A stretch of DNA of 64,000 nucleotides from Lentisphaerota bacterium (GTDB lineage: Bacteria > Verrucomicrobiota > Kiritimatiellia > UBA8416 > VGWJ01), in assembly GCA_016873635.1 (NCBI GenBank), contig VGWJ01000008.1, forward strand, positions 6,078-70,077, given 5' to 3'. Made by a program: the position numbers and the translations under genes. Below are positions 10,397 through 26,923 of this stretch, one piece after another; position 1 is the first letter of the stretch; every line of letters begins with the position of its first letter. Under the pieces are notes generated by a model. It was not told the origin of the DNA. It searched no databases and saw only the letters and a program-made list of their open reading frames with translations.

Positions 10397-10695
10397 CGCG
10401 CCTTTCAACCGGAGAAGCTCGGTCAACGATAGCGGCGACGATAGCGGTGGACGATGCTACGATCTCCAATCGTTGTCCGTTCTCGTCGCCGTTCTCGTCA
10501 ACCGATCCCACTTGGACGTTGGCCGTTGGATGTTCGATGTTGGACGTTCGAGGCGCGTGGCGCCGAAACTCGGCCGAACCGAGCGGCTTATTTTCGGATT
10601 AGGGACGCCGGGAAGCACGTTGACGCAATGCCGCGCGCGCGATATTTTCATCCGTGGGCGGCAACCTCGTGTTCGAGGCTCACACGGCCACCTTG

Positions 10696-12498
10696 ATGAG
10701 GCGAATATCCTTCAGTTCCGGCGCGGCTTTTATGCTGGCGGCAAACCTGGCATTCCTGGCGGCGCTGGCCGCGGGCGTGCGCGTCTGGACGGTCTGCGTT
10801 TCGGCCGTGTGCCTGGGCGCCGTCTTCCTGGCCCGCACGCTGGCGGACGGACGCTCCGGAACGGACGACCGCGGATCGCGTCTGCCCGACGGTGTTCTGT
10901 GGCTGACGGCGGCCTTCTTCGCGGCCCTCTTCGTGTATCTCCTGCCGCTGCCGCCGGCCCTGTCGCGCCTGACCGGCCACGTCCGTTACGCGCAGAACGC
11001 GCGCGCGGCCGGGGCGCTGCGCGAAGCCGCCGCGCTCGGCGTGGTGGCGCCCCGCATGCTCTGGTTCCGCCTGACGCGCAGCTGCGCCGGGACCCTGAAT
11101 ATCATGGGCATCGCTTCCGCCGCGGCCGCGGCGGCGGCGCTGGCCGCCGCGCTGTCGCGCCGCGCGCGTTCCGCCCTGCTCGCCTTTTCCGTCGCGCTCG
11201 GCACGGCGATCGCCGCGGCCGGTTACGTCGGACGATGGGTCGTCCCGCAGGGGAACACGCTCTGGTGGATCATCCGGGTTCCTTACGAGCTCAAGGGGCC
11301 GGCGGCCTGCTTCGGAAATCCCAATCACTACGGCGGCTACGTGGCCATGCTGGCGCCCCTCGCGCTGGCGCTGGCCGTGCGCGCGCTGACGCGCCGGCAG
11401 TGGTTCCGCGGCGCCGCCTGGCTGGCTTGTTGCGCCGTCATGAGCGCGGCCGTCGTATTCTCGCTGTCGCGCGGCGCGCTGATCGCGCTGGCCGCCGGAC
11501 TGCTGATCACGACGGGCCTGCTGACGGCGCTCCTGAGGCCGTTCGTCGCGCGCGTCTTTCTCCCGGCGGCGGCCGCCCTGTTCGTCGCCGGCCTGGTCCT
11601 GGCGCCCGACGCGCGCGTGCGCGAACGCCTGCTTACGCTGCGCGACCCGGCCGCCACGGAAAGCCTGCGGTTCCGCGCGGCCGCCTGGCGCGACACGCTG
11701 CGCATGTGGCGGGCCTATCCGGTGGCGGGCATAGGCCCGGACGCGTTCCAGCACGTCTATCCGCAGTTCCGCGCCACGTCGTCGCGCGCCGTTACGACCC
11801 ACGCCGAGAACGAGTACGTCCAGGCCCTGGCCGAGACGGGCCTGTTCGGCGCCCTGCTCTTCGCGGCCTTCGCCGTCGCCGCCGGCCGCGGCGCGCGCCG
11901 CGCCTGGCGCGCCGCGCCGCCCCCCGACCGCCCGCTGACGGTCGGCGCGGGCGGGGCGCTGGCCGTGGCCGCCGTGCATGCGGCCGGCGATTTCGCCATG
12001 CACATCCCCCTCTATGCCGTTACGCTGGCTTCGATCCTGGGGTCCGCGTGCGGAATCGAGCCCGGCGGCCGCGCCGCGCCGCCCCCGCGCCGGACATCCC
12101 GCGCCGCGCTCGCGTGCGCCGCGGCCGCGCTGCTGGCGGCGCTCTCGGCCGCGGTCTTCGCGCCCTGGACCGGGCGCCTGGCCCTGCACCCCCGCCTGGC
12201 GGAACAGGATCTGCCCGCCCTGGCCCGGGCCATGACCTGGGCCCCGACCTCGCCGGAGGTATGGTACAATTTCGGGTGGGAAGCCGACCGCGCCGCGCCG
12301 CGCCGCGCAAGGAAGTTCGCCGAAGCGTGCATGACGCAGGCCGCGGCCTATGATCCCAACGACTACCTGCTGTGGAAGGAAATCGGAGACCGCCGTCTCA
12401 AGCTCGGCGATATACCCGGCGCGCGCGCGGCCTTTGCGCGCGTCAAGGCGCTGAGGAGCTGGGTGCGCGTTCCGGACCTGCCCGAGGATCCGCAATGA
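10696..12498 (+). CDS. O-antigen ligase family (Wzy_C/WaaL-like) membrane protein with C-terminal TPR-like soluble tail
   Basis: SLSRGALIALAAG and HAENEYVQALAETGLFG motifs of the O-antigen ligase/Wzy_C family. C-terminal ~150 aa soluble with TPR-like helices. An alternative GTG start is at 10654. Confidence 0.75.
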   Translation: MRRISFSSGAAFMLAANLAFLAALAAGVRVWTVCVSAVCLGAVFLARTLADGRSGTDDRGSRLPDGVLWLTAAFFAALFVYLLPLPPALSRLTGHVRYAQNARAAGALREAAALGVVAPRMLWFRLTRSCAGTLNIMGIASAAAAAAALAAALSRRARSALLAFSVALGTAIAAAGYVGRWVVPQGNTLWWIIRVPYELKGPAACFGNPNHYGGYVAMLAPLALALAVRALTRRQWFRGAAWLACCAVMSAAVVFSLSRGALIALAAGLLITTGLLTALLRPFVARVFLPAAAALFVAGLVLAPDARVRERLLTLRDPAATESLRFRAAAWRDTLRMWRAYPVAGIGPDAFQHVYPQFRATSSRAVTTHAENEYVQALAETGLFGALLFAAFAVAAGRGARRAWRAAPPPDRPLTVGAGGALAVAAVHAAGDFAMHIPLYAVTLASILGSACGIEPGGRAAPPPRRTSRAALACAAAALLAALSAAVFAPWTGRLALHPRLAEQDLPALARAMTWAPTSPEVWYNFGWEADRAAPRRARKFAEACMTQAAAYDPNDYLLWKEIGDRRLKLGDIPGARAAFARVKALRSWVRVPDLPEDPQ

Positions 12499-14603: not shown

Positions 14604-15599
14604 CTAGGCCCGCGGGTGCGCTTCCTCGTACACCCGCTTCAGGCGCTCCACCGTGACGTGCGTGTAGATCTGCGTGGTCGACAGGCTGGCATGCCCCAGC
14701 AGCTCCTGCACGCTGCGCAGGTCCGCCCCCGCATCGAGCATGTGCGTGGCGAAGGAATGGCGCAACGCATGTGGCGACAGACCCGCATCGAGCCCCGCCT
14801 CCGCAAGGTACGCCTTCATGCCGCGCTCGAACGAACGCGCCGTGATCGCGCCGCCGCGCAGGTTCCTGAAGACCGGACGCGCCTCACGGCGGCCACCGCC
14901 GGCGGGCCAGATTTCATCGGCCTTCCTGAGAACCTCGCGCAGCGCGCGGAAGGCCGGCGCGCCCAGGGGACAGATGCGCTCCTTCTTGCCTTTGCCGCGC
15001 ACTTTGACCACGCTCGCCAGCAGGTCCACGTCGCCTTCCCGCAGGGCCGCGATCTCGGCCACGCGCGCGCCCGTGCTGTAGAGCGTCTCCAGGATCGCCC
15101 GGTCCCGCAGCAGCGCGTACTCGCGCCCGGTTTCCGGAGGACGATCCCCGCGCGCCGCTTCGCGGCGCGCGATGCGCTCCGGCGCCTCGATCAGTCGCAC
15201 GGCTTCCTCCTTCGTCAGGATCCCGGGCAGGCGGCGCGGCCGGCGCGGCGCGCGCAGGCCCGCGAAAGGATTCTGCTCCACGTAGTCCTCGCGCTCAAGA
15301 AAGCGGTAGAACGAGCGCAGGCTCGCCAGCTTGCGGCCCGTGGTGGACGGCTCCATCCCGGCCTTCTGGAACTCGACGAGAAAACGCCGCGCCGCGAAGC
15401 GGTCCGCGCCCGCCCAGGCGAAGGGCGGCCGCGCCGCGTCGCCCCACGTGAACGCCGCAAACTGCGCGATATCCAGCGCGTAGGCCTCCAGCGTGTGGCG
15501 CGAGGCGTTGCGCTCGTGCGTCAGGTAGCGCACGAAATGCGCCACGGCGGGATCGGCGCCGGCGCGTCCTTCACGTTTCCGCGTGTGATTCTCTGCCAC
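14604..15599 (-). CDS. xerC: tyrosine site-specific recombinase XerC
   Basis: N-terminus VAHFVRYLTHERNASRHTLEAYALDI matches XerC ([22 protein letters not shown]). C-terminal R..HxxR..Y catalytic motifs (HALRHSFATHML, LGHASLSTTQIYTH). Confidence 0.8.
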   Translation of the reverse strand: MAENHTRKREGRAGADPAVAHFVRYLTHERNASRHTLEAYALDIAQFAAFTWGDAARPPFAWAGADRFAARRFLVEFQKAGMEPSTTGRKLASLRSFYRFLEREDYVEQNPFAGLRAPRRPRRLPGILTKEEAVRLIEAPERIARREAARGDRPPETGREYALLRDRAILETLYSTGARVAEIAALREGDVDLLASVVKVRGKGKKERICPLGAPAFRALREVLRKADEIWPAGGGRREARPVFRNLRGGAITARSFERGMKAYLAEAGLDAGLSPHALRHSFATHMLDAGADLRSVQELLGHASLSTTQIYTHVTVERLKRVYEEAHPRA

Positions 15600-18093
15600 G
15601 GCTGCGCTCGATGTCGTATTGCCCGGCGATTTCCGCGTAGCCCGGAACCTGGTCGCGGTAGCGCCGCACCATGCGCTTCAGGGCGGCGCGCTGCTTGACG
15701 GAAAGAAACCGCCGCTCGCCGAATTGCCGCCGCAACGACTCGAAAAAGTCCCGGTCGTCGAACACCCGCTTGCCGCGCCGCAAGGGCTCCTTCCAGTGCC
15801 GCACGTGCGCCATCGCCTCGAGCAGCGGCCCGCTTTCCGTGTCATCCCCGGCGTAATCGGCGATTTCCAGCGATCCCCGCATCTCATCGAAGCCGTCGAT
15901 CTTGTCGGCATGCCGCAGCACCACGTTGTTGAGCGCCCTGATCTGCCGCTCGGTGAGCGCGCGCTTGCCGTCCACGCGCGACCGCAGGGAGTTCACGAAG
16001 GACGTCGCGCGCTCGTCCAGGGGCAGGTTCCGCAGCAGGTCGAGCTTGCGCACGGTGCTTTCCAGCGGACCGGTCTCCGCCTCCGCCTCCGCCTTGAGTT
16101 TTGCGTCGTATCCGCTGTCGACGATAACGCGGTCCACCTCCGGCGCGGACTGCCGGTAGCGCGCCGCGACCCGCATCAGGAAGGCCAGTTGGCGGTGCGT
16201 GATGCCCTTGCCCTGCTCGATGGCCCGGGCGCGGATGGACTTCACGAAACGCTCGTCGCTGAACACCCGCCCGCCGGTCTCCACTTCCGGCGCCCAGTCG
16301 GTGACGCCCTGCAGGGCTCCGAGCAGGCGCTCCACAAGGGCGCCGTCGGCCGAGGGCTCCTTGAGGCTATTCATCCATTCCGCGAACTGCCCGTAGAACC
16401 GCGCCAGCATTCCGGTCCATTCGACGGAGCCGTTTTCCACCTCGTCGAGGGACTTTTCCATCTCCGCGGTGAAGCCCACGTCGAACAGCGTCGGCAGGAC
16501 GGATACGAGCAGGTCGTTCACCTGGAAACCCAGGTCGGTCGGCGAGAGCGTGCGCTTCTCGCGCGCCACGTAGCGCCGCTGCTGCAGCGTGCCGATGATC
16601 TGGGCATACGTGCTGGGGCGGCCCACGCCGTTGCTCTCCAGCGCCCGCACCAGCGACGCTTCGCTGTAGCGCGGCGGCGGCTGCGTCTCCTTGCGCTCGG
16701 CCAGCCACTCCAGGCACTCCAGCGGTTCGCCTTCCGCGAGCGCGGGCAGCTTCTCGACGTCGTCGCCGTCCTCGGCCTGCCGCTCCGTCTGCTCCGGCCT
16801 TTCGTGCAGAACCTTCATGTAGCCCGGGAATTCGACTTCGGATGCGGTCGCCTGGAATTCGTAGTGCGTGCCCCGCCCTTCGGGCGGCGGCGCTTCCACC
16901 ACCGCCGTGCGCTGCCGGATGCGCGCCGCGGCCATCTGGCTGGCCACGAAGCGCTGCCAGACCAGGCGGTAGAGCTTGAGTTCCTCGGGCTTGAGGCGGT
17001 CGGCCAGGCTTTCCGGCGTGCGCGCGGGGTCCGTCGGCCGGATGGCCTCGTGGGCCTCCTGCGCGCCGGCGCGGCTCTTGAAAAAACGGGGCTCGGCCGG
17101 GCAGTATTCGGGCCCGAAGCGCGCGGCGATAAGCTCCCGGCAGGCGGCCACCGCCTCCCGCGCCAGGTTGAAGGAGTCCGTGCGCATGTAGGTGATCAGG
17201 CCCACGGGGCCGTCGCCGAGGTCGATGCCCTCGTAGAGCTTCTGGGCGATGCTCATCGTGCGCCGCGGCGAGAAACCGCAGAAGCTCGAGCCGGCCTGCT
17301 GCAGCGTGCTGGTGATGTACGGCGGCGGCGCGCTCTTGTTCACCTGCCGCGCCTGCACCGCCGACACGCGCAGGGCGCGGCCTTCCAGGTCCTTGCGCAC
17401 CGCTTCGGCGCGTTCGCCGTTCCCGATCTCGATCTTCTTGCCGTCGGCCCTCACCAGGCGGATGCGGAAGGGGTCCGGAGGGGGCGACAGCTTCCGCACC
17501 AGGGCGCCCAGCAGCCAGTACTCCTCGGACTTGAAGTCCCTGATCTCCCGCTCCCGCTCGCACACCAGCCGCAAGGCCACGGACTGCACGCGTCCCGCGC
17601 TCAGCCCGCGCTTGATGCGCCGCCACAGAACGGGGCTCACCTTGTAGCCCACGATGCGGTCGAGAATGCGCCGCGCCTGCTGGGCGTTGACCCGCGCGAT
17701 GTCGATCTTGCCCGGGTGCTCGAACGCCCCGCGCACGGCCCGCGGCGTGATCTCGTTGTACTGCACCCTCTGGAAGCGCGCGTCTTTTTCGCCCCGGCCC
17801 AGCACGTGCGTCAGGTGCCAGGCGATCGCCTCGCCCTCGCGGTCCGGATCCGGCGCCAGGTAAATGGTGTCCGCGTTCTTCGCCGCCGCCTTCAGCTCGG
17901 CCACGACCTTGGCGCGCCCCGGCACCAGCGCGTAGCGCGGCCGGAAATTGTTCTCGATGTCGACGCCCAGCCGGTTGACGGGCAGGTCCCGGATGTGCCC
18001 CATGGACGACCGCACCGTGTATCCCTTCCCCAATATCTTCCCGATGGTCTTCGCCTTGGCCGGCGATTCCACCACCACCAGCTTGGTGCCCAT
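15571..18093 (-). CDS. topA: DNA topoisomerase I
   Basis: MGTKLVVVESPAKAKTIGKILGKGYTVRSSMGHIRDLP (TOPRIM). Topo IA core throughout. 840 aa. Confidence 0.9.
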   Translation of the reverse strand: MGTKLVVVESPAKAKTIGKILGKGYTVRSSMGHIRDLPVNRLGVDIENNFRPRYALVPGRAKVVAELKAAAKNADTIYLAPDPDREGEAIAWHLTHVLGRGEKDARFQRVQYNEITPRAVRGAFEHPGKIDIARVNAQQARRILDRIVGYKVSPVLWRRIKRGLSAGRVQSVALRLVCEREREIRDFKSEEYWLLGALVRKLSPPPDPFRIRLVRADGKKIEIGNGERAEAVRKDLEGRALRVSAVQARQVNKSAPPPYITSTLQQAGSSFCGFSPRRTMSIAQKLYEGIDLGDGPVGLITYMRTDSFNLAREAVAACRELIAARFGPEYCPAEPRFFKSRAGAQEAHEAIRPTDPARTPESLADRLKPEELKLYRLVWQRFVASQMAAARIRQRTAVVEAPPPEGRGTHYEFQATASEVEFPGYMKVLHERPEQTERQAEDGDDVEKLPALAEGEPLECLEWLAERKETQPPPRYSEASLVRALESNGVGRPSTYAQIIGTLQQRRYVAREKRTLSPTDLGFQVNDLLVSVLPTLFDVGFTAEMEKSLDEVENGSVEWTGMLARFYGQFAEWMNSLKEPSADGALVERLLGALQGVTDWAPEVETGGRVFSDERFVKSIRARAIEQGKGITHRQLAFLMRVAARYRQSAPEVDRVIVDSGYDAKLKAEAEAETGPLESTVRKLDLLRNLPLDERATSFVNSLRSRVDGKRALTERQIRALNNVVLRHADKIDGFDEMRGSLEIADYAGDDTESGPLLEAMAHVRHWKEPLRRGKRVFDDRDFFESLRRQFGERRFLSVKQRAALKRMVRRYRDQVPGYAEIAGQYDIERSRGRESHAET

Positions 18094-18124: not shown

Positions 18125-19225
18125 TTACCCGCGAACCAGCCGGACCGTGCGGCCCGGCAGCATCTTCACGACCCGCTTCATCTCCAGCCCCAGCAGCAGC
18201 ACGCCCATGGCCGAGGCCGTCAGCCCCGTGGCGCGGATCAGGGCGTCCACCTCGCTCTCGCCTCCGTCAAGGGCCTCCACCACGCGCTCTTCGTCGCCCG
18301 AGAGCGGGGGACGCGCGGCCCTGCCCTGCGCTTCGGCCTCCGGCTTCGGCGCGATCAGGAACTCGAACTCCTGCAGAACGTCCTCCACGCTGGTGACCAG
18401 CCGCGCGCCGCCCTGGATCAGACCGTGGCAGCCCCGCGAAGCCGCCGAGTCGATCCGCCCCGGCACGGCCATCACGCTGCGCCCCTGGTCCAGCGCCTGC
18501 GCCGCCGTGATCAGGGCCCCGCTGCCGGGCGCGGCCTCGACCACCACCACGCCCATGCTCAGTCCGCTCACGATGCGGTTGCGCATGGGGAAAGTCGTCT
18601 TGTCCGGCTGCCTTCCGAACGGGAACTCGGTAAGCACCGCCCCCTGCGCCGCGATCTCGTCGGCCAGGCCCGCGTTCGCGCGCGGATACATGCAGTCCAG
18701 CGCTCCGCCCAGCACGGCGATCGTGCGCCCCCTGGCCCGCAGCGCCGCGCGATGCGCCTCCGTGTCGATGCCCGCCGCCAGGCCGCTGACCACCGTAAAG
18801 CCGCATCTGGCCAGCCCGAACCCCAGCATGCCGGCGGTCTCCCGGCCGTAGTGCGTCGGCCGCCGCGTTCCGACCACGCCGATGGCGTGCCTGTCCCTGG
18901 CCTCCAGGCGGCCGCGCGCGTAGAAGGCCAGCGGCGGATCGTGAATCCCGCGCAGCGGCGCCGGGTACTCCTCGTCAACCTGCGTCACGATCCGCGCCCC
19001 GGCCGCCTCGGTCCGCTCCAGCTCCCCGGCCCAGTCCACGGCGTCCCGCTGCGCCAGGACGGCCGCCGTCAGGTCCCGCCCCGCGCCGCGCGCCCCGCCC
19101 AGCTCCGCCGGCGTCGCTTCAAAGATCGCCGCGGCGGATCCCAGCGCCTCCGCCAGGCAACGCACCCCCACGGGCCCCACGTCGCTCATCATGTTCAGCG
19201 CGATGTAGGCTTCCCGCTCGTTCAT
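18125..19225 (-). CDS. dprA: DNA processing protein DprA (Smf)
   Basis: Start MNEREAYIALNMM. Rossmann-like DprA core (IGVVGTRRPTHYGRE...SGLAAGIDTEAH). The longer ORF to 20086 is rejected as an extension. Confidence 0.85.
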   Translation of the reverse strand: MNEREAYIALNMMSDVGPVGVRCLAEALGSAAAIFEATPAELGGARGAGRDLTAAVLAQRDAVDWAGELERTEAAGARIVTQVDEEYPAPLRGIHDPPLAFYARGRLEARDRHAIGVVGTRRPTHYGRETAGMLGFGLARCGFTVVSGLAAGIDTEAHRAALRARGRTIAVLGGALDCMYPRANAGLADEIAAQGAVLTEFPFGRQPDKTTFPMRNRIVSGLSMGVVVVEAAPGSGALITAAQALDQGRSVMAVPGRIDSAASRGCHGLIQGGARLVTSVEDVLQEFEFLIAPKPEAEAQGRAARPPLSGDEERVVEALDGGESEVDALIRATGLTASAMGVLLLGLEMKRVVKMLPGRTVRLVRG

Positions 19226-19444
19226 CCGGACTCCCAAATGAGGCGAGGTAAATAGCACGCTTCCGCCGCGCGACGCAAGCGCTCGTTCGCCGGGAACCGG
19301 CATTCCATGCCGCGTCGCCGCTGACAACTGATCAGTCGCGCCGGATCCGTGTCGCTTGTCGGCCTCGGCGCGCCCCTTCACCTTCCACCCGCCACCCTCC
19401 ACCCTGCACCCGGCACGCTTTCTTGCGTCTATTCCGGCGGCGGC

Positions 19445-19473
19445 GTTGACTTCTCCCGCGCGCGACGCCATAC
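19445..19473 (+). promoter_or_regulatory. putative sigma70-type promoter (TTGACT -17 bp- CATACT) ending 8 nt before the ATG, so a possibly leaderless mRNA
   Basis: ttgacttctcccgcgcgcgacgccatact read directly upstream of ATG 19481. Confidence 0.35.
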
Positions 19474-19480
19474 TGGCCGC

Positions 19481-20116
19481 ATGTCGATGTTCGGCGTCGA
19501 AAGATTCGACCGGCCGCGCCGCGCGCCGCGGCTGCTCGTCATCCTGCTCGCGCTCACGTCCCTCCCCGTCGCCGGACTGTGCCTGCTGCTCGGCGGACGC
19601 CCGCAGCCGGCCGAACCGCCCGCCGAAGGACCCCCGTCGCTGGCGGAACCGCTGCGGCCGGAGCCGGCCTCCTTCAAGCCGAACTCGTCCGTTCCGCGCC
19701 GCCCGGAGGGCGCAACCTGCGGATCGATCGACCCGGACTCGTTCTCCGCCGGACGCGACCTGGTCTATGTGGACGACCCGCGCGCGTGGTGGGAAAGCGA
19801 CAGCGACGTCGGCGACGACGAATGCGATCACAGCGTGCACCGGGCCGCGAAACGCCCGCTGCTCAGGCTGATCGAACTGGTCAGCCGCGAAGGCGCAACC
19901 CTGAAGGTCCAGGACGCCTACCGGCCCTCGGGCATCCACAACTCCGGATCGCTCCACAAGGAAGGCCGCGCCGTGGACGTGACGTGCGACGACATGCCCC
20001 TTGAGAAGCTGGCCAAGCTGTGCTGGGCGGCGGGATTCGACTGGGTCCTCTACGAGTCGGATCCCCGCAAGGGACCGCACGTCCACTGCTCCGTGAAGCG
20101 CGACCGCGCGGAGTGA
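19481..20116 (+). CDS. bacterial Hedgehog N-terminal ('Hedge') domain homologue: signal-anchor + Pro-rich stalk + LAS-type zinc-peptidase-like Hh-N domain
   Basis: C-terminal 110 aa align to vertebrate Shh-N: window SLHKEGRAVDVTCDD...LAKLCWAAGFDWVLYESD...HVHCSVKRD against Shh SLHYEGRAVDITTSD...LARLAVEAGFDWVYYESK..HIHCSVKAE. The zinc ligands (H, D, H) and the catalytic-type Glu are conserved. Upstream CDHSVHRAAKRPLLRLIELV matches RCKDKLNALAISV. N-terminus MSMFGVERFDRPRRAPRLLVILLALTSLPVAGLCLLL is a TM/signal segment. Confidence 0.8.
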   Translation: MSMFGVERFDRPRRAPRLLVILLALTSLPVAGLCLLLGGRPQPAEPPAEGPPSLAEPLRPEPASFKPNSSVPRRPEGATCGSIDPDSFSAGRDLVYVDDPRAWWESDSDVGDDECDHSVHRAAKRPLLRLIELVSREGATLKVQDAYRPSGIHNSGSLHKEGRAVDVTCDDMPLEKLAKLCWAAGFDWVLYESDPRKGPHVHCSVKRDRAE

Positions 20117-20246: not shown

Positions 20247-20864
20247 TCAGGAAGGACACATCTTGTCGAGGTTCTCCGTGGCCTTGAAGACGAGATTGCC
20301 TTCGCTGTCCTGAACATAAAGACGGCACCGCCCCGGCAGAAGACGCCGCACCTCGCGCCCCCCGCTCTCCCTGGTCTCGTACAGCGCGACCGTAATGCGG
20401 ACCGGCACCTTGCCGCTCTTGCTGAAGCGCGACGCCTCCTCCTTGGCGCGCACGTCGTCGAGCGTGAAGGTGGCCTCGATATTCATGCCGCGGCCGCGTT
20501 CGTCCCTCCATTCGGTCTTCAGCGCGGCAATCTCTTCCTCGGTGAGCGTGTCGCCCGCCGCGCGCGATGCCGGCGCCGCCTTGACGGCCATCGAGGACTT
20601 GACCGCCGGCGCATCCGCGGGCGCCACGCCCGCAAGCTCCCGCGCCACGGCCTGGTCCGCCTGGCAGAGCCGGCTGAGAGGAATTCCCACCGTTTCGCCG
20701 CCCGCGCGTTGCAGGTGCACCATGCCGGCTTCCATCTTCACAAAGGAAGCCTCAACGGTCTGCCCGCTCACGCTCGTCCACGTGCGCACGCCGGCATCGG
20801 CGGCGCACACGGCCCGCGCCGCGGCCAGCAGCGCGACACATACCACAGCCAACGCACTTTTCAT
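20247..20864 (-). CDS. secreted SHD1 (SLA1-homology domain 1)-containing protein
   Basis: Signal peptide MKSALAVVCVALLAAARAVCA. RTWTSVSGQTVEASFVKMEAGMVHLQRAGGETVGIPLSRLCQADQ matches the bacterial SHD1 pattern. GGAGGG RBS. Confidence 0.65.
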   Translation of the reverse strand: MKSALAVVCVALLAAARAVCAADAGVRTWTSVSGQTVEASFVKMEAGMVHLQRAGGETVGIPLSRLCQADQAVARELAGVAPADAPAVKSSMAVKAAPASRAAGDTLTEEEIAALKTEWRDERGRGMNIEATFTLDDVRAKEEASRFSKSGKVPVRITVALYETRESGGREVRRLLPGRCRLYVQDSEGNLVFKATENLDKMCPS

Positions 20865-21229
20865 GGACAGGCCCTCCAAGAACCCCAACGCTCTGAACCT
20901 CCCCAATAATACCCCCAGCCGCATTGCGACCGCAAGCAGCTTCAGGAGAGTCTGGGATTCGCCTTTACTCCGCAAGAAGTGATGTCTAGCATTACAGAGG
21001 AGCATGCGCGAAGGGAGGTGATCCGGTGAGGTCGCGGTTTCACTGGCGCAGATGAGCCGCCACGGCGTCGCGCCGCGCAGGTTGCGCGGCACCTGACAGT
21101 TTCGTGGCGGCCGCGGGCGCGCCTTGCCGGGTCGGGGAGCGCGCGATTGCTTTCCCCTCCTGAGCGGCGCCGGTCCCGCGTCTCGCGTCGGGCTCCGGCA
21201 GGCGGACAGTTTTCCCCGCTTTCCCCGGA

Positions 21230-22450
21230 ATGCGGCTCCGCATCATGAACAGGACGTGCGACAAATCCGCTCCGCTCCAGGCTCCCTGCCGCGGCGGCGC
21301 GCCGGCCGGCGGGGACGCCGGCGCGGAAACCGGCCACATCGCGTGGTTCCGCGACATGGTGCAGCACTGCTACGACTACGCCGCCGCGGAGCACGCCCGG
21401 GGCACGAAGATCGTCGGGATCATGTGCGAATACACGCCCCGCGAGATCATCATGGCCGCGGGCGCCATCCCCGTGTGCCTGTGCGGCGGGTCCGAGAAAA
21501 TGGTGGCGCCGGCCGAACAGCACCTGCCCGCCAACCTCTGCCCGCTGATCAAATCGACCTTCGGCTACAGCGTGCGGAAGGCCAACCCCTTCCTGGAGAT
21601 GAGCGATTTCCTGGTGGCCGAGACCACCTGCGACGGCAAGAAGAAGATGTACGAGATGCTGGCCGAGAGCCACCCCATGCACGTGCTCGAGCTTCCGCAG
21701 AAACCCGACGATCCCGATGCCCTGTCGCACTGGGTGCGCGAAGTCCACAAGCTGAAGACGGCCGTCGCAACCCGCACGGGCGCGGCCGTCACCGACGACG
21801 CGCTGCGCCGCGCCATAGCGCTCATGAACCGCGAGCGACAACTGAAGCGCGACCTCGCGGCGCTGATGAAAGCCGACGACCCGCCCCTGACCGGCCGCGA
21901 GCTGCTGGACATGAAAAGCCTGATCGCCTGCCTCCCCGACGATATGCGGCAGCTCGAGCGCGCCGTCGCGGAACTTCCCGGACGCGTCGTCCCCTCCCGG
22001 AACCGGCGCGCGCGCGTGATGCTCACCGGCGTGCCCATCCCCCACGGCGCCGAACGCGTAATGGACATAATCGAGAACGCCGGCGGGCTGGTCGTGTGCC
22101 AGGAGAACTGCACGGGGCTGAAGCCGGTTCTCGACGACGTGGACGAAAACCATCCCGATCCGCTGCGCGCGATCGCCGAGAAGTACTTCCACCTGCCGTG
22201 TTCCGTCATGACGCCCAACGACCGGCGCCTGGACGTTCTGCGCCGCCTGGCGGCGGAATACCGGCCGGACTGCGTGGTCGAGCTGGTGTGGCAGGCCTGC
22301 CTGACCTATGACGTGGAATCCGCGCGCGTCCGGCGCCTCGCGGAGAATGAGCTCCGTCTGCCCTATCTGAAGATCGAGACGGACTACTCGCCGTCGGACA
22401 CCGCGCGCATAGCCACGCGGGTGCAGGCCATGTTCGAAACGCTGGGGTGA
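21230..22450 (+). CDS. 2-hydroxyacyl-CoA dehydratase family protein (HgdB/BcrB/BadD-like component)
   Basis: Family-typical Cys placement (CLCGG, TTCDGKKK). Similarity runs throughout to the dehydratase/benzoyl-CoA reductase subunit family. True start may be the internal Met at ~21356. Confidence 0.7.
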   Translation: MRLRIMNRTCDKSAPLQAPCRGGAPAGGDAGAETGHIAWFRDMVQHCYDYAAAEHARGTKIVGIMCEYTPREIIMAAGAIPVCLCGGSEKMVAPAEQHLPANLCPLIKSTFGYSVRKANPFLEMSDFLVAETTCDGKKKMYEMLAESHPMHVLELPQKPDDPDALSHWVREVHKLKTAVATRTGAAVTDDALRRAIALMNRERQLKRDLAALMKADDPPLTGRELLDMKSLIACLPDDMRQLERAVAELPGRVVPSRNRRARVMLTGVPIPHGAERVMDIIENAGGLVVCQENCTGLKPVLDDVDENHPDPLRAIAEKYFHLPCSVMTPNDRRLDVLRRLAAEYRPDCVVELVWQACLTYDVESARVRRLAENELRLPYLKIETDYSPSDTARIATRVQAMFETLG

Positions 22451-22454
22451 ACGG

Positions 22455-23231
22455 ATGCTGGCCGCGGGAATAGACGCCGGATCGCGCGCCGTGAAAGCGG
22501 CGATCGTCGAGGCCGCGACGCTGAAGCTGCTCGCGACCGCTATCGCCGACCAGGGCGTCGATCAGGAAGCCATCGCCGGGGCCGTTTTTGACGAAGCGCT
22601 GGACGGGGCCGGGGCTTCGCGCCGCGACGTTGTCCGCGCGGTGGCCACCGGCTACGGGCGGGACGCGGTGGGCGTGGCGGCAGTCACCGTCACCGAGATC
22701 ACCTGCCATGCCCGGGGTGTTTTTCACGCGGCGCCGGGGGCGCGGACGGTGATTGACATAGGCGGCCAGGACAGCAAACTGATGCGACTGAACGGAGACG
22801 GCCGGGTGCGCGATTTCAGCATGAACGATCGCTGCGCCGCCGGAACGGGGCGCTTCCTTGAAGTCGTGGCGGCCCGCCTCGGGGTGGGGCTGCACGAGCT
22901 CGGAGGGCTGGCCGCCCGTTCGGCGAATCCGGCGGCCATCAGCAGCATGTGCGTGGTCTTCGCCGAAACCGAAATCATAGGCCTGCTCGCGGGCGGAGCG
23001 CCGCGGGAGGATATTGCCGCCGGCGTGCAGTCGGCCATCGCCACGCGCGTGGCCTCGATGGCCGGCCGCCGGATCGAGGAGCCCGTCGTCTTCACGGGCG
23101 GCGTGGCGCTGGTGCCGGGCATGCGCGAGGCCCTGGGCGTCGCGCTGGGACGGGAGGTTTCCGTCGCCGGCAGACCCCAGTTTACGGGCGCGCTGGGCGC
23201 GGCCCTTTTGGCGGCCGGAGGATGTGTGTGA
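22455..23231 (+). CDS. CoA-substrate-specific enzyme activase (BadF/BadG/BcrA/BcrD/HgdC ATPase family)
   Basis: GIDAGSRAVKAAIV actin-like ATPase N-terminus. MNDRCAAGTG cluster-bridging Cys motif. Starts 5 nt after the upstream stop. Confidence 0.8.
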   Translation: MLAAGIDAGSRAVKAAIVEAATLKLLATAIADQGVDQEAIAGAVFDEALDGAGASRRDVVRAVATGYGRDAVGVAAVTVTEITCHARGVFHAAPGARTVIDIGGQDSKLMRLNGDGRVRDFSMNDRCAAGTGRFLEVVAARLGVGLHELGGLAARSANPAAISSMCVVFAETEIIGLLAGGAPREDIAAGVQSAIATRVASMAGRRIEEPVVFTGGVALVPGMREALGVALGREVSVAGRPQFTGALGAALLAAGGCV

Positions 23232-23306: not shown

Positions 23307-23403
23307 TGGCGGGAGTGAGTGGGAATCGAACCCAACCGGGGCCGGTCAAAGCCCCACACTGGATTTGAAGTCCAGGAGGCCCACCAGGTACCTGTTCACT
23401 CCC
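23307..23403 (-). tRNA. selC: tRNA-Sec (selC), anticodon UCA
   Basis: Reverse complement GGGAGTGA...CTGGA-CTTCAAA-TCCAG...GGGGC-tttgacc-GGCCCC...TTCGATT...TCACTCCC-G-CCA. It has an 8-bp acceptor stem, discriminator G and an encoded CCA. The 5-bp anticodon stem carries a 7-nt loop with U33 and UCA. The variable arm is long. 97 nt. Adjacent to selA. Confidence 0.85.
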
Positions 23404-24946: not shown

Positions 24947-26923
24947 ATGCGGAGTTGCCCGACAACCGCCAAAGGCGCGGCGCAGGCCGCCGGCCAGGTC
25001 ATCAGCCTCACCGTCGGCACGGCCGGCCACATCGATCACGGCAAGACGCAGCTCGTGCGGATGCTTACCGGCTGCGACACGGACCGGCTGCCCGAGGAAA
25101 AGGCGCGCGGCATGACCATCGACCTCGGTTTCGCCGCCTGCGTGCTTCCCAGCAACCGTCGCGTCGGCATCGTGGACGTGCCGGGCCACGAGCGCTTCAT
25201 CCACAACATGGTCGCCGGCGCCGCCGGAATGGACGCGGTGCTGCTGGTCGTGGCCGCCGACGACGGCGTCATGCCCCAGACCGTCGAGCACCTCCAGATC
25301 ATCAACCTGCTCGGCGTGACCGCCGGCATGACCGCCATCACCAAGATCGATCTCGTTCCGCCGGAGCGCGTGGCTGAAGTCGCCGACCAGGTGCGCGCGC
25401 TCGCCGCCGGAAGCTTTCTCGCGCAGGCGCCCATCGTGCCCGTATCGTCCAAGACGGGCGCGGGATACGACGCCTTCTACGAGGCCTTCACCGCCTTGGT
25501 CGACCGCACGGCCGAGCGCGACGCCGGCGGCCCCTTCCGCCTGAACGTGGAGCGCTCCTTCGTGCTGGAGGGCATCGGGACGGTCGTCTCCGGCATTCCC
25601 CGCTCCGGGACCGTGCGCACGGGCGACGAGCTGGAGCTTCTGCCCGCGGGCGCGCTGAAACGCGTGCGCGGCATCCAGGTCTACGGACAAAGCGCCGGGC
25701 AGGGCCGCGCCGGCGAATGCGTCGCGCTGCGTCTCGCGGACATGCGCCGCGACGAGGCCGGGCGCGGCGCCGTTCTCGCCGCGCCGGGGCATTTCCGTCC
25801 GTCGCGCTTCCTCAGCGCCCGCTTCCGGCTTCTGTCTTCCGTGGGCGATCCGATCCGGCCGCGCACCGCGGTCCGCCTGCACCTGGGCACGTCCGACGTG
25901 CCCGGGCACCTCGTCCTGCCCGAGCTGACGTCCCTGCCGCCGGGCGGCGAGAGCTACGTCCAGATCCAGCTGCAGGCCCCCGTGGTGGCGGCGCTGGGCG
26001 ACCCGTTCGTGGTGCGAATGCTCAGCCCGGTCCGGACGATCGGCGGCGGATACGTGGTCGCCGCCGACGCCGAGAAGATGCGGCGCGCGCGCGGCGACTG
26101 GGCGCAGGAGCGCGCCGAGCGCGACGCGGCGTTCCGCGACCCGGCGACGGCGCTGGCCTACGTGCTCGAACACGCCGGATGCGCACCCCTGCGCGTCGCG
26201 GAGCTGTCGCGCCGGGCCGTGCTGACCGAAGACGCCGCGGCCGCCCGCCTGCGCGAGCTGGTCGAGGCGGGAAAGGCGGCGGCGCTTCCCGGCGAACGCT
26301 TCGTCGCGGCGGAAGCCCTGACGGCCGCTTCCAAGGCGATCGCCGACCGCCTGTCCGCGCTGCACGACGCTTCGCCCCTCGCCGTCGGCTTCGCGAAGAA
26401 GGCCGTCGTCGCGGACGTGGAAATGGATCGCGCCTTGCTTGACCGCGCCATCGAGGGGCTCGCGCGCGACGGCCGCGTGCAGGTCACCGACGCCGGGCTG
26501 CGCCTGGCCGAGCGCGCCGCGAAGCTGAACCCCGCCCAGGCCGCGCTGGCGGCGCGCATCGTGGCCAGGCTGGCGGAGACGGGTTTCCATACGCCGCGGT
26601 CCGACGAGCTTCCGGGCGTCGTGGGCGCGCCCGCCTCGCTGGTGACGCCCGTCCTGGAGCACCTCGTGCAGTCCGGAACGGTCGTGCGCGTCGACGAACG
26701 CATTCTTCTGCACCGCGACGCCGCGGACGATGCCGGAAAGCGCATCGCCCGCCACATACGCGCCCACGGCGCGATCGACGCGGGCGGATGCAAGGAACTG
26801 CTGGACACGACGCGGAAGTACGCGATACCCATACTTGAGTATTTCGACGCCCGCGGCCTCACCCGCCGCGTCGGCGACAAGAGAGTGCTGCGAGAAGAGC
26901 CGAAGCAGACTGATAGCGTTTAG
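24947..26923 (+). CDS. selB: selenocysteine-specific translation elongation factor
   Basis: G-domain GTAGHIDHGKT, DVPGHERF, TKIDL. C-terminal winged-helix domains. 658 aa. Start codon uncertain. Confidence 0.9.
   Translation: MRSCPTTAKGAAQAAGQVISLTVGTAGHIDHGKTQLVRMLTGCDTDRLPEEKARGMTIDLGFAACVLPSNRRVGIVDVPGHERFIHNMVAGAAGMDAVLLVVAADDGVMPQTVEHLQIINLLGVTAGMTAITKIDLVPPERVAEVADQVRALAAGSFLAQAPIVPVSSKTGAGYDAFYEAFTALVDRTAERDAGGPFRLNVERSFVLEGIGTVVSGIPRSGTVRTGDELELLPAGALKRVRGIQVYGQSAGQGRAGECVALRLADMRRDEAGRGAVLAAPGHFRPSRFLSARFRLLSSVGDPIRPRTAVRLHLGTSDVPGHLVLPELTSLPPGGESYVQIQLQAPVVAALGDPFVVRMLSPVRTIGGGYVVAADAEKMRRARGDWAQERAERDAAFRDPATALAYVLEHAGCAPLRVAELSRRAVLTEDAAAARLRELVEAGKAAALPGERFVAAEALTAASKAIADRLSALHDASPLAVGFAKKAVVADVEMDRALLDRAIEGLARDGRVQVTDAGLRLAERAAKLNPAQAALAARIVARLAETGFHTPRSDELPGVVGAPASLVTPVLEHLVQSGTVVRVDERILLHRDAADDAGKRIARHIRAHGAIDAGGCKELLDTTRKYAIPILEYFDARGLTRRVGDKRVLREEPKQTDSV

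Follow-up and report, generated by a model that had tools for sequence, protein, structure and literature searches.

We analysed a 64,000-nucleotide stretch of contig VGWJ01000008.1 from a Lentisphaerota bacterium (the window), in which an open reading frame (ORF) encodes a small protein that carries a complete Hedge domain, the N-terminal signalling domain (Hh-N) of animal Hedgehog (Hh) proteins, behind a single predicted transmembrane (TM) helix. The features of this Hedge gene, of its product and of the adjoining genes are collected in Table 1. The original prediction had singled out the ORF for short motifs shared with Sonic hedgehog (Shh). All of these motifs were present, and HMMER aligned them likewise, pairing SLHKEGRAVDVT with SLHYEGRAVDIT, LAKLCWAAGFDWVLYES with LARLAVEAGFDWVYYES, and HVHCSVK with H(I/V)HCSVK of Ihh and Shh.

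Table 1. Features at the Hedge locus, in window coordinates.
Feature	Position	Strand	Basis or remark
Coding sequence of the Hedge-domain protein	19481..20116	+	211 residues plus stop; ORF translation, Pfam HH_signal 53.5 bits
Sigma-70-like promoter motif TTGACT-17-CATACT	19446..19474	+	Putative; consensus match only
N-terminal hydrophobic segment, residues 17-37, predicted signal-anchor TM helix	19529..19591	+	Kyte-Doolittle, AlphaFold
Short Pro/Glu-rich linker, residues 38-56	19592..19648	+	32% Pro over residues 39-75; unconserved in family alignments
Complete Hedge (Hh-N-like) domain, residues 57-208	19649..20104	+
Family-specific acidic/His loop, W104 to H120	19790..19840	+	In place of Shh 87-100, where Shh has its calcium-binding loop
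Arg148	19922..19924	+	At the position of Shh calcium ligand D130; R in 64/64
H153 and LAS motif S157-L-H159-K-E-G-R-A-V-D166	19937..19978	+	Predicted zinc ligands 1 and 2; 64/64 invariant
E192 and H200-V-H202	20054..20086	+	Catalytic-base position and predicted zinc ligand H202; 64/64 invariant
Perfect 11-nucleotide inverted repeat CCGTGAAGCGC / GCGCTTCACGG, 19-nucleotide loop	20091..20131	+	Straddles the Hedge stop codon, between convergent genes
dprA	18125..19225	-	Divergent from the Hedge gene; Pfam DNA_processg_A, DprA_WH; conserved synteny partner, no shared operon
topA	15571-18093		Beyond dprA; Pfam Topoisom_bac
xerC	14604-15599		Beyond topA; Pfam Phage_integrase

Extent of the Hedgehog homology

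The Pfam model HH_signal (PF01085) matched the window protein at 53.5 bits (cutoff 22.1, E 3e-14), and each of its 64 aligned relatives was matched as well. A phmmer search of the PDB sequences with the window protein returned Ihh, Shh and Dhh at E ~1e-13, while a profile built from the 64 relatives recovered 25 distinct PDB sequences at E ~1e-20, all of them Hedgehog proteins. When the family was compared by hhalign with a joint profile of animal Hh and the classical bacterial Hedge-domain proteins (bacHh), the two were aligned over 143 columns with a probability of 99.8% and an E-value of 3.8e-28. As judged by these searches, the resemblance to Hedgehog is far beyond chance. Both the MAFFT alignments with mouse Shh and published bacHh and the profile-profile hhalign comparison equated residues 62-211 with mouse Shh 43-190. 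In these alignments the homology spans the entire globular Hedge domain, rather than the C-terminal ~110 residues first proposed, and because residues 62-211 are covered, most of what had been described as a proline-rich stalk belongs to the N-terminal part of the domain, leaving a linker only at about residues 38-56. The absence of a Hint/intein domain was predicted correctly, as the ORF ends three residues past the domain and Pfam found no Hint.

The AlphaFold model of the window protein (predicted local distance difference test score, pLDDT, 90.4; predicted template modelling score, pTM, 0.77) agreed with this extent. The top 38 Foldseek matches to the model were all Hh-N, with LdcB following at E ~0.02, and in the model the Hh-N fold and its LAS core fold extend over the whole domain. 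A generic VanY/VanX-type D-Ala-D-Ala peptidase that shares only the LAS motifs with Hedgehog would be in keeping with weak matches to Peptidase_M15_3 (15.4 bits, cutoff 23.2), Peptidase_M15_2 (11.5 bits, cutoff 27) and the D-Ala-D-Ala dipeptidase model PRK10178 (22.6 bits, cutoff 176). However, the window protein fell below threshold for every M15 Pfam model and every NCBIfam model and had no VanY Pfam match, whereas HH_signal was well above threshold, the PDB sequence matches were to Hedgehog only and hhalign reached 99.8%. This explanation is refuted by those results and we regard it as very improbable, as the original prediction had also argued.

Active site, calcium site and membrane anchor

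Mouse Shh numbering was mapped onto the window protein through a MAFFT alignment (A3), and residue counts were taken from the 64-member family alignment (A2). The predicted zinc ligands H159, D166 and H202 correspond to Shh H141, D148 and H183, E192 to the catalytic E177, and H153 and H200 to the stacking residues H135 and H181. All six, together with S157, were invariant in 64 of 64 relatives, and the zinc ligands, E177 and H135/H181 are identical in animal Hh-N (Shh, Ihh, Dhh), which also share the motifs SLH-EGRAVD-T, AGFDWV-YE and H-HCSV with the window protein. The LAS motif was aligned to SLHYEGRAVD of Shh and Ihh by HMMER, by the family profile and by hhalign. Both the LAS-type SxHxxGxAxD and HxH motifs were present, as they are in the LAS peptidases of MEROPS family M15 (VanX, VanY, LdcB, MepA, the S. 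albus DD-carboxypeptidase and phage endolysins), so that the window protein has the hallmarks of a Hedge domain and of a LAS superfamily member. By these residues the zinc centre is complete, and the protein would be expected to bind metal.

The calcium site gave a different picture. Three of the six Shh calcium ligands have acidic equivalents in the family: E90 is replaced by D107 (59 D and 5 E among the 64), and D96 and E127 by the invariant D116 and D145. The other three are lost, with the positions of E91 and D132 variable and D130 replaced by R148, which was Arg in 64 of 64 and was paired with D130 in the HMMER, family-profile and hhalign alignments alike. By these alignments the family has not kept the di-calcium site of Shh, and the completeness claimed in the original prediction therefore holds for the zinc ligands and the catalytic Glu but not for calcium. 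Where Shh has its calcium-binding loop, the family carries the pattern W104-E-S-D-x-D-x-x-D-x-E-x-D-H-x-x-H120, in which W104, E105, D109, E114, D116 and H117 were invariant in all 64 relatives and D107, D112 and H120 nearly so. This loop has a 3-residue insertion relative to Shh (4 alignment columns in A3). It may bind another metal, or R148 may simply replace the cation. An obligate disulfide was also considered for the domain and rejected, as no covarying pair was found among the conserved C115, C169, C181 and C203.

Loss of the zinc site has occurred in Drosophila Hh and in Hedgling, and the window protein could by analogy be a non-catalytic Hedge binding domain serving as an adhesin, ligand or sensor. 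Canonical Hh signalling is independent of the zinc site (PMC8052667), and R148 together with the invariant acidic/His loop could serve as a surface for binding. However, invariance of the six catalytic and zinc residues in all 64 relatives, at an overall identity of ~50-65%, is the signature of a working site, and no partner or receptor gene is conserved alongside. No clear Patched or Smoothened homologues were found in the bacHh-carrying bacteria examined by Roelink, a set outside the PVC (Planctomycetes-Verrucomicrobia-Chlamydiae) carriers (PMC6027127). We consider a purely binding role improbable.

Ahead of the linker, residues 18-36 gave the Kyte-Doolittle 19-residue maximum of 2.62, values elsewhere staying at or below 0.71, and AlphaFold placed a helix at residues 17-37. 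Such a hydrophobic segment was found in 62 of the 64 relatives, 76-102 residues ahead of the WWESD motif. The length of the segment and the lack of an evident AxA site or lipobox at the N-terminus favour a signal anchor, and the four Arg that precede it point, by the positive-inside rule, to an N-in/C-out topology. Together these features suggest that the Hedge domain is periplasmic. The membrane anchor of the original prediction is thus supported by one strong hydrophobic segment, while its stalk is mostly domain. Two other export signals were tried and rejected. The RRAPRL stretch does not fit the Tat consensus S/T-R-R-x-F-L-K and is, by eye, unconserved in the family, and 'AGLC' is not a canonical lipobox, its Cys being unconserved. 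Animal Hh proteins are tethered by lipids, in contrast to the TM helix predicted here. They have a C-terminal autoprocessing Hint/Hog domain with a G-C-F cleavage site and cholesterol transfer, a lipidated N-terminal CGPG with its palmitoylated Cys and a Ptch1-binding Cardin-Weintraub segment, all of which are missing from the window protein, whose alignment starts at Shh 43. The earlier suggestion that the anchor mirrors the cell-surface presentation of Hh-N is best read as an analogy and does not speak for a signalling role.

Native origin, distribution and gene neighbourhood

The Hedge gene lies among ordinary chromosomal genes and resembles them in composition. Its local G+C content (GC) was 0.715 against 0.63-0.74 across the window, and GC at third codon positions (GC3) was 0.87 against 0.83-0.92 in xerC, topA, dprA, the SHD1 gene and the HGD genes. 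The divergent dprA-topA-xerC arrangement was observed in 14 related loci, representing 13 distinct contigs (L004 and L005 being one contig recovered from two sources). In these syntenic loci the Hedge proteins were 57-66% identical to the window protein, compared with 55-66% for DprA, TopA and XerC. Because the divergence of the Hedge protein equals the range of these neighbours and the synteny is conserved, the family fits vertical inheritance under purifying selection.

The best solved relatives of the window protein are vertebrate proteins, as might be expected if the sequence were a eukaryotic contaminant, if the contig were chimeric or if the gene had recently passed from an animal to a bacterium. 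Against such an origin stand the GC and GC3 like those of the surroundings, the uninterrupted ORF with a bacterial-type promoter motif upstream, the identity of only ~31% to animal Hh, the presence of the family in at least 84 bacterial species, the synteny on 13 distinct contigs and the divergence equal to that of core genes. These observations refute a foreign origin, which we find hardly credible, and bear out the original prediction on this point.

A word-indexed protein search returned 214 clusters of the family at 90% identity, all of them already labelled PF01085, whose named members were 'hypothetical protein' entries from Kiritimatiellae, Lentisphaerae, Verrucomicrobia and Phycisphaerae metagenome-assembled genomes (MAGs). 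An exhaustive search of 1.84 billion representatives gave 36 clusters at E < 1e-30, with a discrete break after ~40 clusters, beyond which classical 'RVTEAWDEDGEH'-type sequences from animal Hh fragments and other bacteria followed. We also scanned one genome per GTDB species with two peptide patterns (80 loci listed) and found at least 84 species carrying the family, all of them represented by MAGs or single-amplified genomes (SAGs) and nearly all labelled Kiritimatiellia, Lentisphaerae, Victivallales or Verrucomicrobiota. Bacterial Hh-like proteins had been described beforehand as rare and functionally uncharacterised. This description calls for qualification: such proteins were reported in 2018 and 2021 (PMC6027127, PMC8052667), and the present family has 214 clusters and at least 84 species.

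Gene neighbourhoods were surveyed in 84 loci by clustering all ORFs that lie up to 3.5 kb from the gene, and also by tblastn with the window neighbours. The syntenies were lineage-specific and included dprA-topA-xerC; proC with a 175-residue protein and an LbH acyltransferase; an M16 peptidase with small proteins; atpC; and an H+-PPase. In one relative (P0054, locus L002, 5717-6633) the Hedge gene shares 4 nucleotides with the end of atpC and apparently closes the operon for the F-type ATP synthase, unusual company for a periplasmic peptidase.

Within the window, a second ATG at 19487, two codons downstream of the first, would yield a 209-residue form of the Hedge protein. A JGI gene call (P0001) from a 909-bp metagenome contig has this form and is 100% identical to the window protein. 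The putative promoter motif has 9 of 12 consensus matches and is the sole such site in the intergenic region, where shuffled sequences would be expected to give 0.1. As this motif ends 7 nucleotides before the first ATG (19481) and no Shine-Dalgarno sequence is visible, the Hedge mRNA may be leaderless or nearly so. At the other end of the gene, the inverted repeat is not a canonical intrinsic terminator, since no T-run follows it, and the terminator scan made no call there; the repeat could form a 3'-end hairpin between the convergent genes. A long ORF that covers most of the Hedge gene in antisense (18125-20086, minus strand, 653 residues) was rejected as a second gene and is best described as dprA plus a stop-free high-GC upstream extension. 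DprA homologues are ~368 residues long, and the DprA Pfam domains are confined to 18125-19225. Comparable shadow ORFs formed a cluster drawn from 61 related loci. No second Hedge copy or other LAS gene was found within the 64-kb window.

Other genes of the window were noted in passing. The convergent gene downstream (20247-21092, minus strand) encodes an SHD1 domain (SLA1 homology domain 1, which takes its name from an endocytic protein of yeast; 36 bits) and, by eye in the translation, a hydrophobic signal-peptide-like stretch; a homologue adjoins the Hedge gene in one other locus only (L001). It is followed by a 2-hydroxyacyl-CoA dehydratase D-component (21230-22450) with its BcrAD/BadFG-type activase (22455-23231) and by a selenocysteine-decoding set consisting of tRNA-Sec (23307-23403, minus strand) and SelB (24947-26923, plus strand). 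Upstream of the xerC-topA-dprA block lies an O-antigen ligase-like (Wzy_C) membrane protein (10654-12498, plus strand).

A distinct subfamily and its proposed function

Bacterial Hedge domains were reported by Roelink in 2018 (PMC6027127). These bacHh domains are >50% identical to ShhN over ~145 residues, keep all calcium ligands and occur in about a dozen bacteria, nine of which are given in the supplement (Micromonospora, Bacillus, Paenibacillus, Algibacter, Spirosoma, Pseudonocardia, Mesorhizobium, Bradyrhizobium and Pseudoalteromonas). Jägers and Roelink (2021) described the Rhizobiales bacHh as accessory genes among secreted hydrolases and presumed a peptidoglycan-peptidase role (PMC8052667). 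The published sequences used here come from the supplement, a PDF whose text was read by machine, and minor errors in them are possible. Over 136 shared columns the window family was 30-33% identical to mouse Shh and 25-38% identical to eight published bacHh domains. Mean identities were 32% to bacHh and 31% to animal Hh, compared with 50% between bacHh and animal Hh. In a neighbour-joining tree (unrooted or midpoint-rooted) the window family formed a clade of its own. With about 31% identity to either animal Hh or bacHh, which share about 50% between themselves, the family is by sequence comparison a distinct and apparently undescribed PVC subfamily of bacterial Hedge-fold proteins. In open-access full texts we found, among the matches listed, no paper linking hedgehog-like proteins to Kiritimatiellia or Lentisphaerae, and none on HH_signal/PF01085 together with bacteria. 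Bacterial Hedge-fold proteins of LAS type and the PF01085 label in databases are already known; what appears to be new is the distinct subfamily.

The subfamily and bacHh have much in common. Their zinc and catalytic residues are identical, the Hedge domain is C-terminal and predicted to be extracytoplasmic in both, and both are presumed to be M15A-like peptidoglycan peptidases. They differ in that the window family consists of small single-TM proteins in core-genome-like synteny, whereas bacHh form the C-terminal domain of larger or 3-TM proteins in accessory, hydrolase-rich clusters (PMC8052667). The family also lacks two published features of bacHh, namely their level of identity to ShhN and their calcium ligands, and PVC taxa are absent from the published bacHh list. 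Classical-type Hedge domains were additionally observed inside very large bacterial proteins (among P0162, P0183 and P0176), including a Polyangiaceae/Myxococcales protein of 1127 residues annotated DUF2272, an Anaerolineales protein of 846 residues, and a protein of 3688 residues with 7 matched stretches (P0176). These architectures go beyond those drawn in PMC6027127.

We propose that the window protein is an inner-membrane-anchored periplasmic zinc hydrolase acting on peptidoglycan stem peptides, a role that we consider probable, with moderate confidence, by analogy with characterised LAS enzymes. The fold, the extent of the domain, the invariance of the catalytic residues, the taxonomic range and the native origin are demonstrated by the analyses above, and topology, metal binding, catalysis and substrate are inferred. 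In this type II architecture an Arg-rich tip would lie in the cytoplasm, residues 17-37 would cross the membrane as the TM helix, and ~19 residues of linker would connect them to the Hedge domain (residues 57-208). H159, D166 and H202 would hold one Zn2+, E192 would activate the zinc-bound water, and H153 and H200 would stabilise the tetrahedral intermediate or transition state. The Shh/bacHh di-calcium site is replaced by the invariant R148 and the invariant acidic/His loop. A zinc mechanism of this kind is established for the LAS enzymes VanX and the S. albus DD-peptidase. The characterised structural neighbours of the window protein are VanX, VanY, LdcB, MepA, DD-carboxypeptidase and phage L-Ala-D-Glu peptidases, and since all of these cut peptidoglycan stem peptides or their precursors, a D-amino-acid-containing stem-peptide bond is the likeliest substrate. 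Working near the inner membrane, the enzyme could cleave this bond either as a carboxypeptidase or as an endopeptidase. Such zinc chemistry has also been proposed for Shh (PMC8052667).

Several points weigh against this proposal. The peptidase activity of Shh is itself a hypothesis (PMC8052667). As no Peptidase_M15 or VanY model reached threshold, the substrate class is not transferable from a characterised enzyme. The zinc-site mapping comes from four concordant sequence or profile alignments, and the choice of an anchor over a cleaved signal peptide was likewise read from the sequence. Finally, no universal or cell-wall-specific neighbour was found across the 84 loci surveyed; with syntenies that vary between lineages and no universal partner, the genomic context holds no clue to the substrate.

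A Hedge-fold zinc peptidase with the same fold and active site could instead act on another substrate, such as exogenous detrital murein or glycan-linked peptides used for feeding, a specific envelope protein subject to regulatory proteolysis, or peptide links in an exopolymer. Jägers and Roelink suggest that bacHh scavenge and that Shh cleaves proteoglycans (PMC8052667), and no cell-wall genes were noted among the annotated neighbours. Kiritimatiellia are described as sulfated-glycan specialists, some with glycosaminoglycan-like exopolymers (PMC7356697). However, a tether of ~19 residues at the inner membrane is ill suited to external polymers in a diderm cell, the hydrolase-rich operons of classical bacHh are absent here, and no title among the 80 listed loci is that of a named species in culture, such as the Pontiella strains that make exopolymers, although this last point is indirect, being drawn from the two-pattern scan. 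We therefore hold another substrate to be possible but unlikely, and continue to favour a stem peptide.

These results touch on two open questions, whether the Shh zinc site works as a peptidase and where the Hedge domain came from. Published bacHh are scattered over unrelated phyla as accessory genes and so say little about the direction of transfer. The PVC family is equidistant (~31%) from animal Hh and bacHh, belongs to one bacterial lineage and diverges together with its housekeeping neighbours, and for these reasons it widens the bacterial base of the Hedge fold. One speculative and rather doubtful extension is that the family represents an old, vertically inherited bacterial lineage that branched before the split of bacHh and animal Hh-N, with the exchange of a calcium ligand for Arg and the acidic/His loop perhaps reflecting a different regulation or a different substrate, for example glycan-linked peptides in these glycan-specialist bacteria; the unrooted or midpoint-rooted tree and the identity pattern are compatible with this view but do not establish where the root lies. 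If true, it would for the first time give solid grounds for placing the origin of the Hedgehog signalling domain in bacteria, in preference to its spread from animals into scattered bacteria. The small (~155-residue) Hedge domain of the family, free of the calcium site, could in any case offer a simpler system for the suspected peptidase chemistry.

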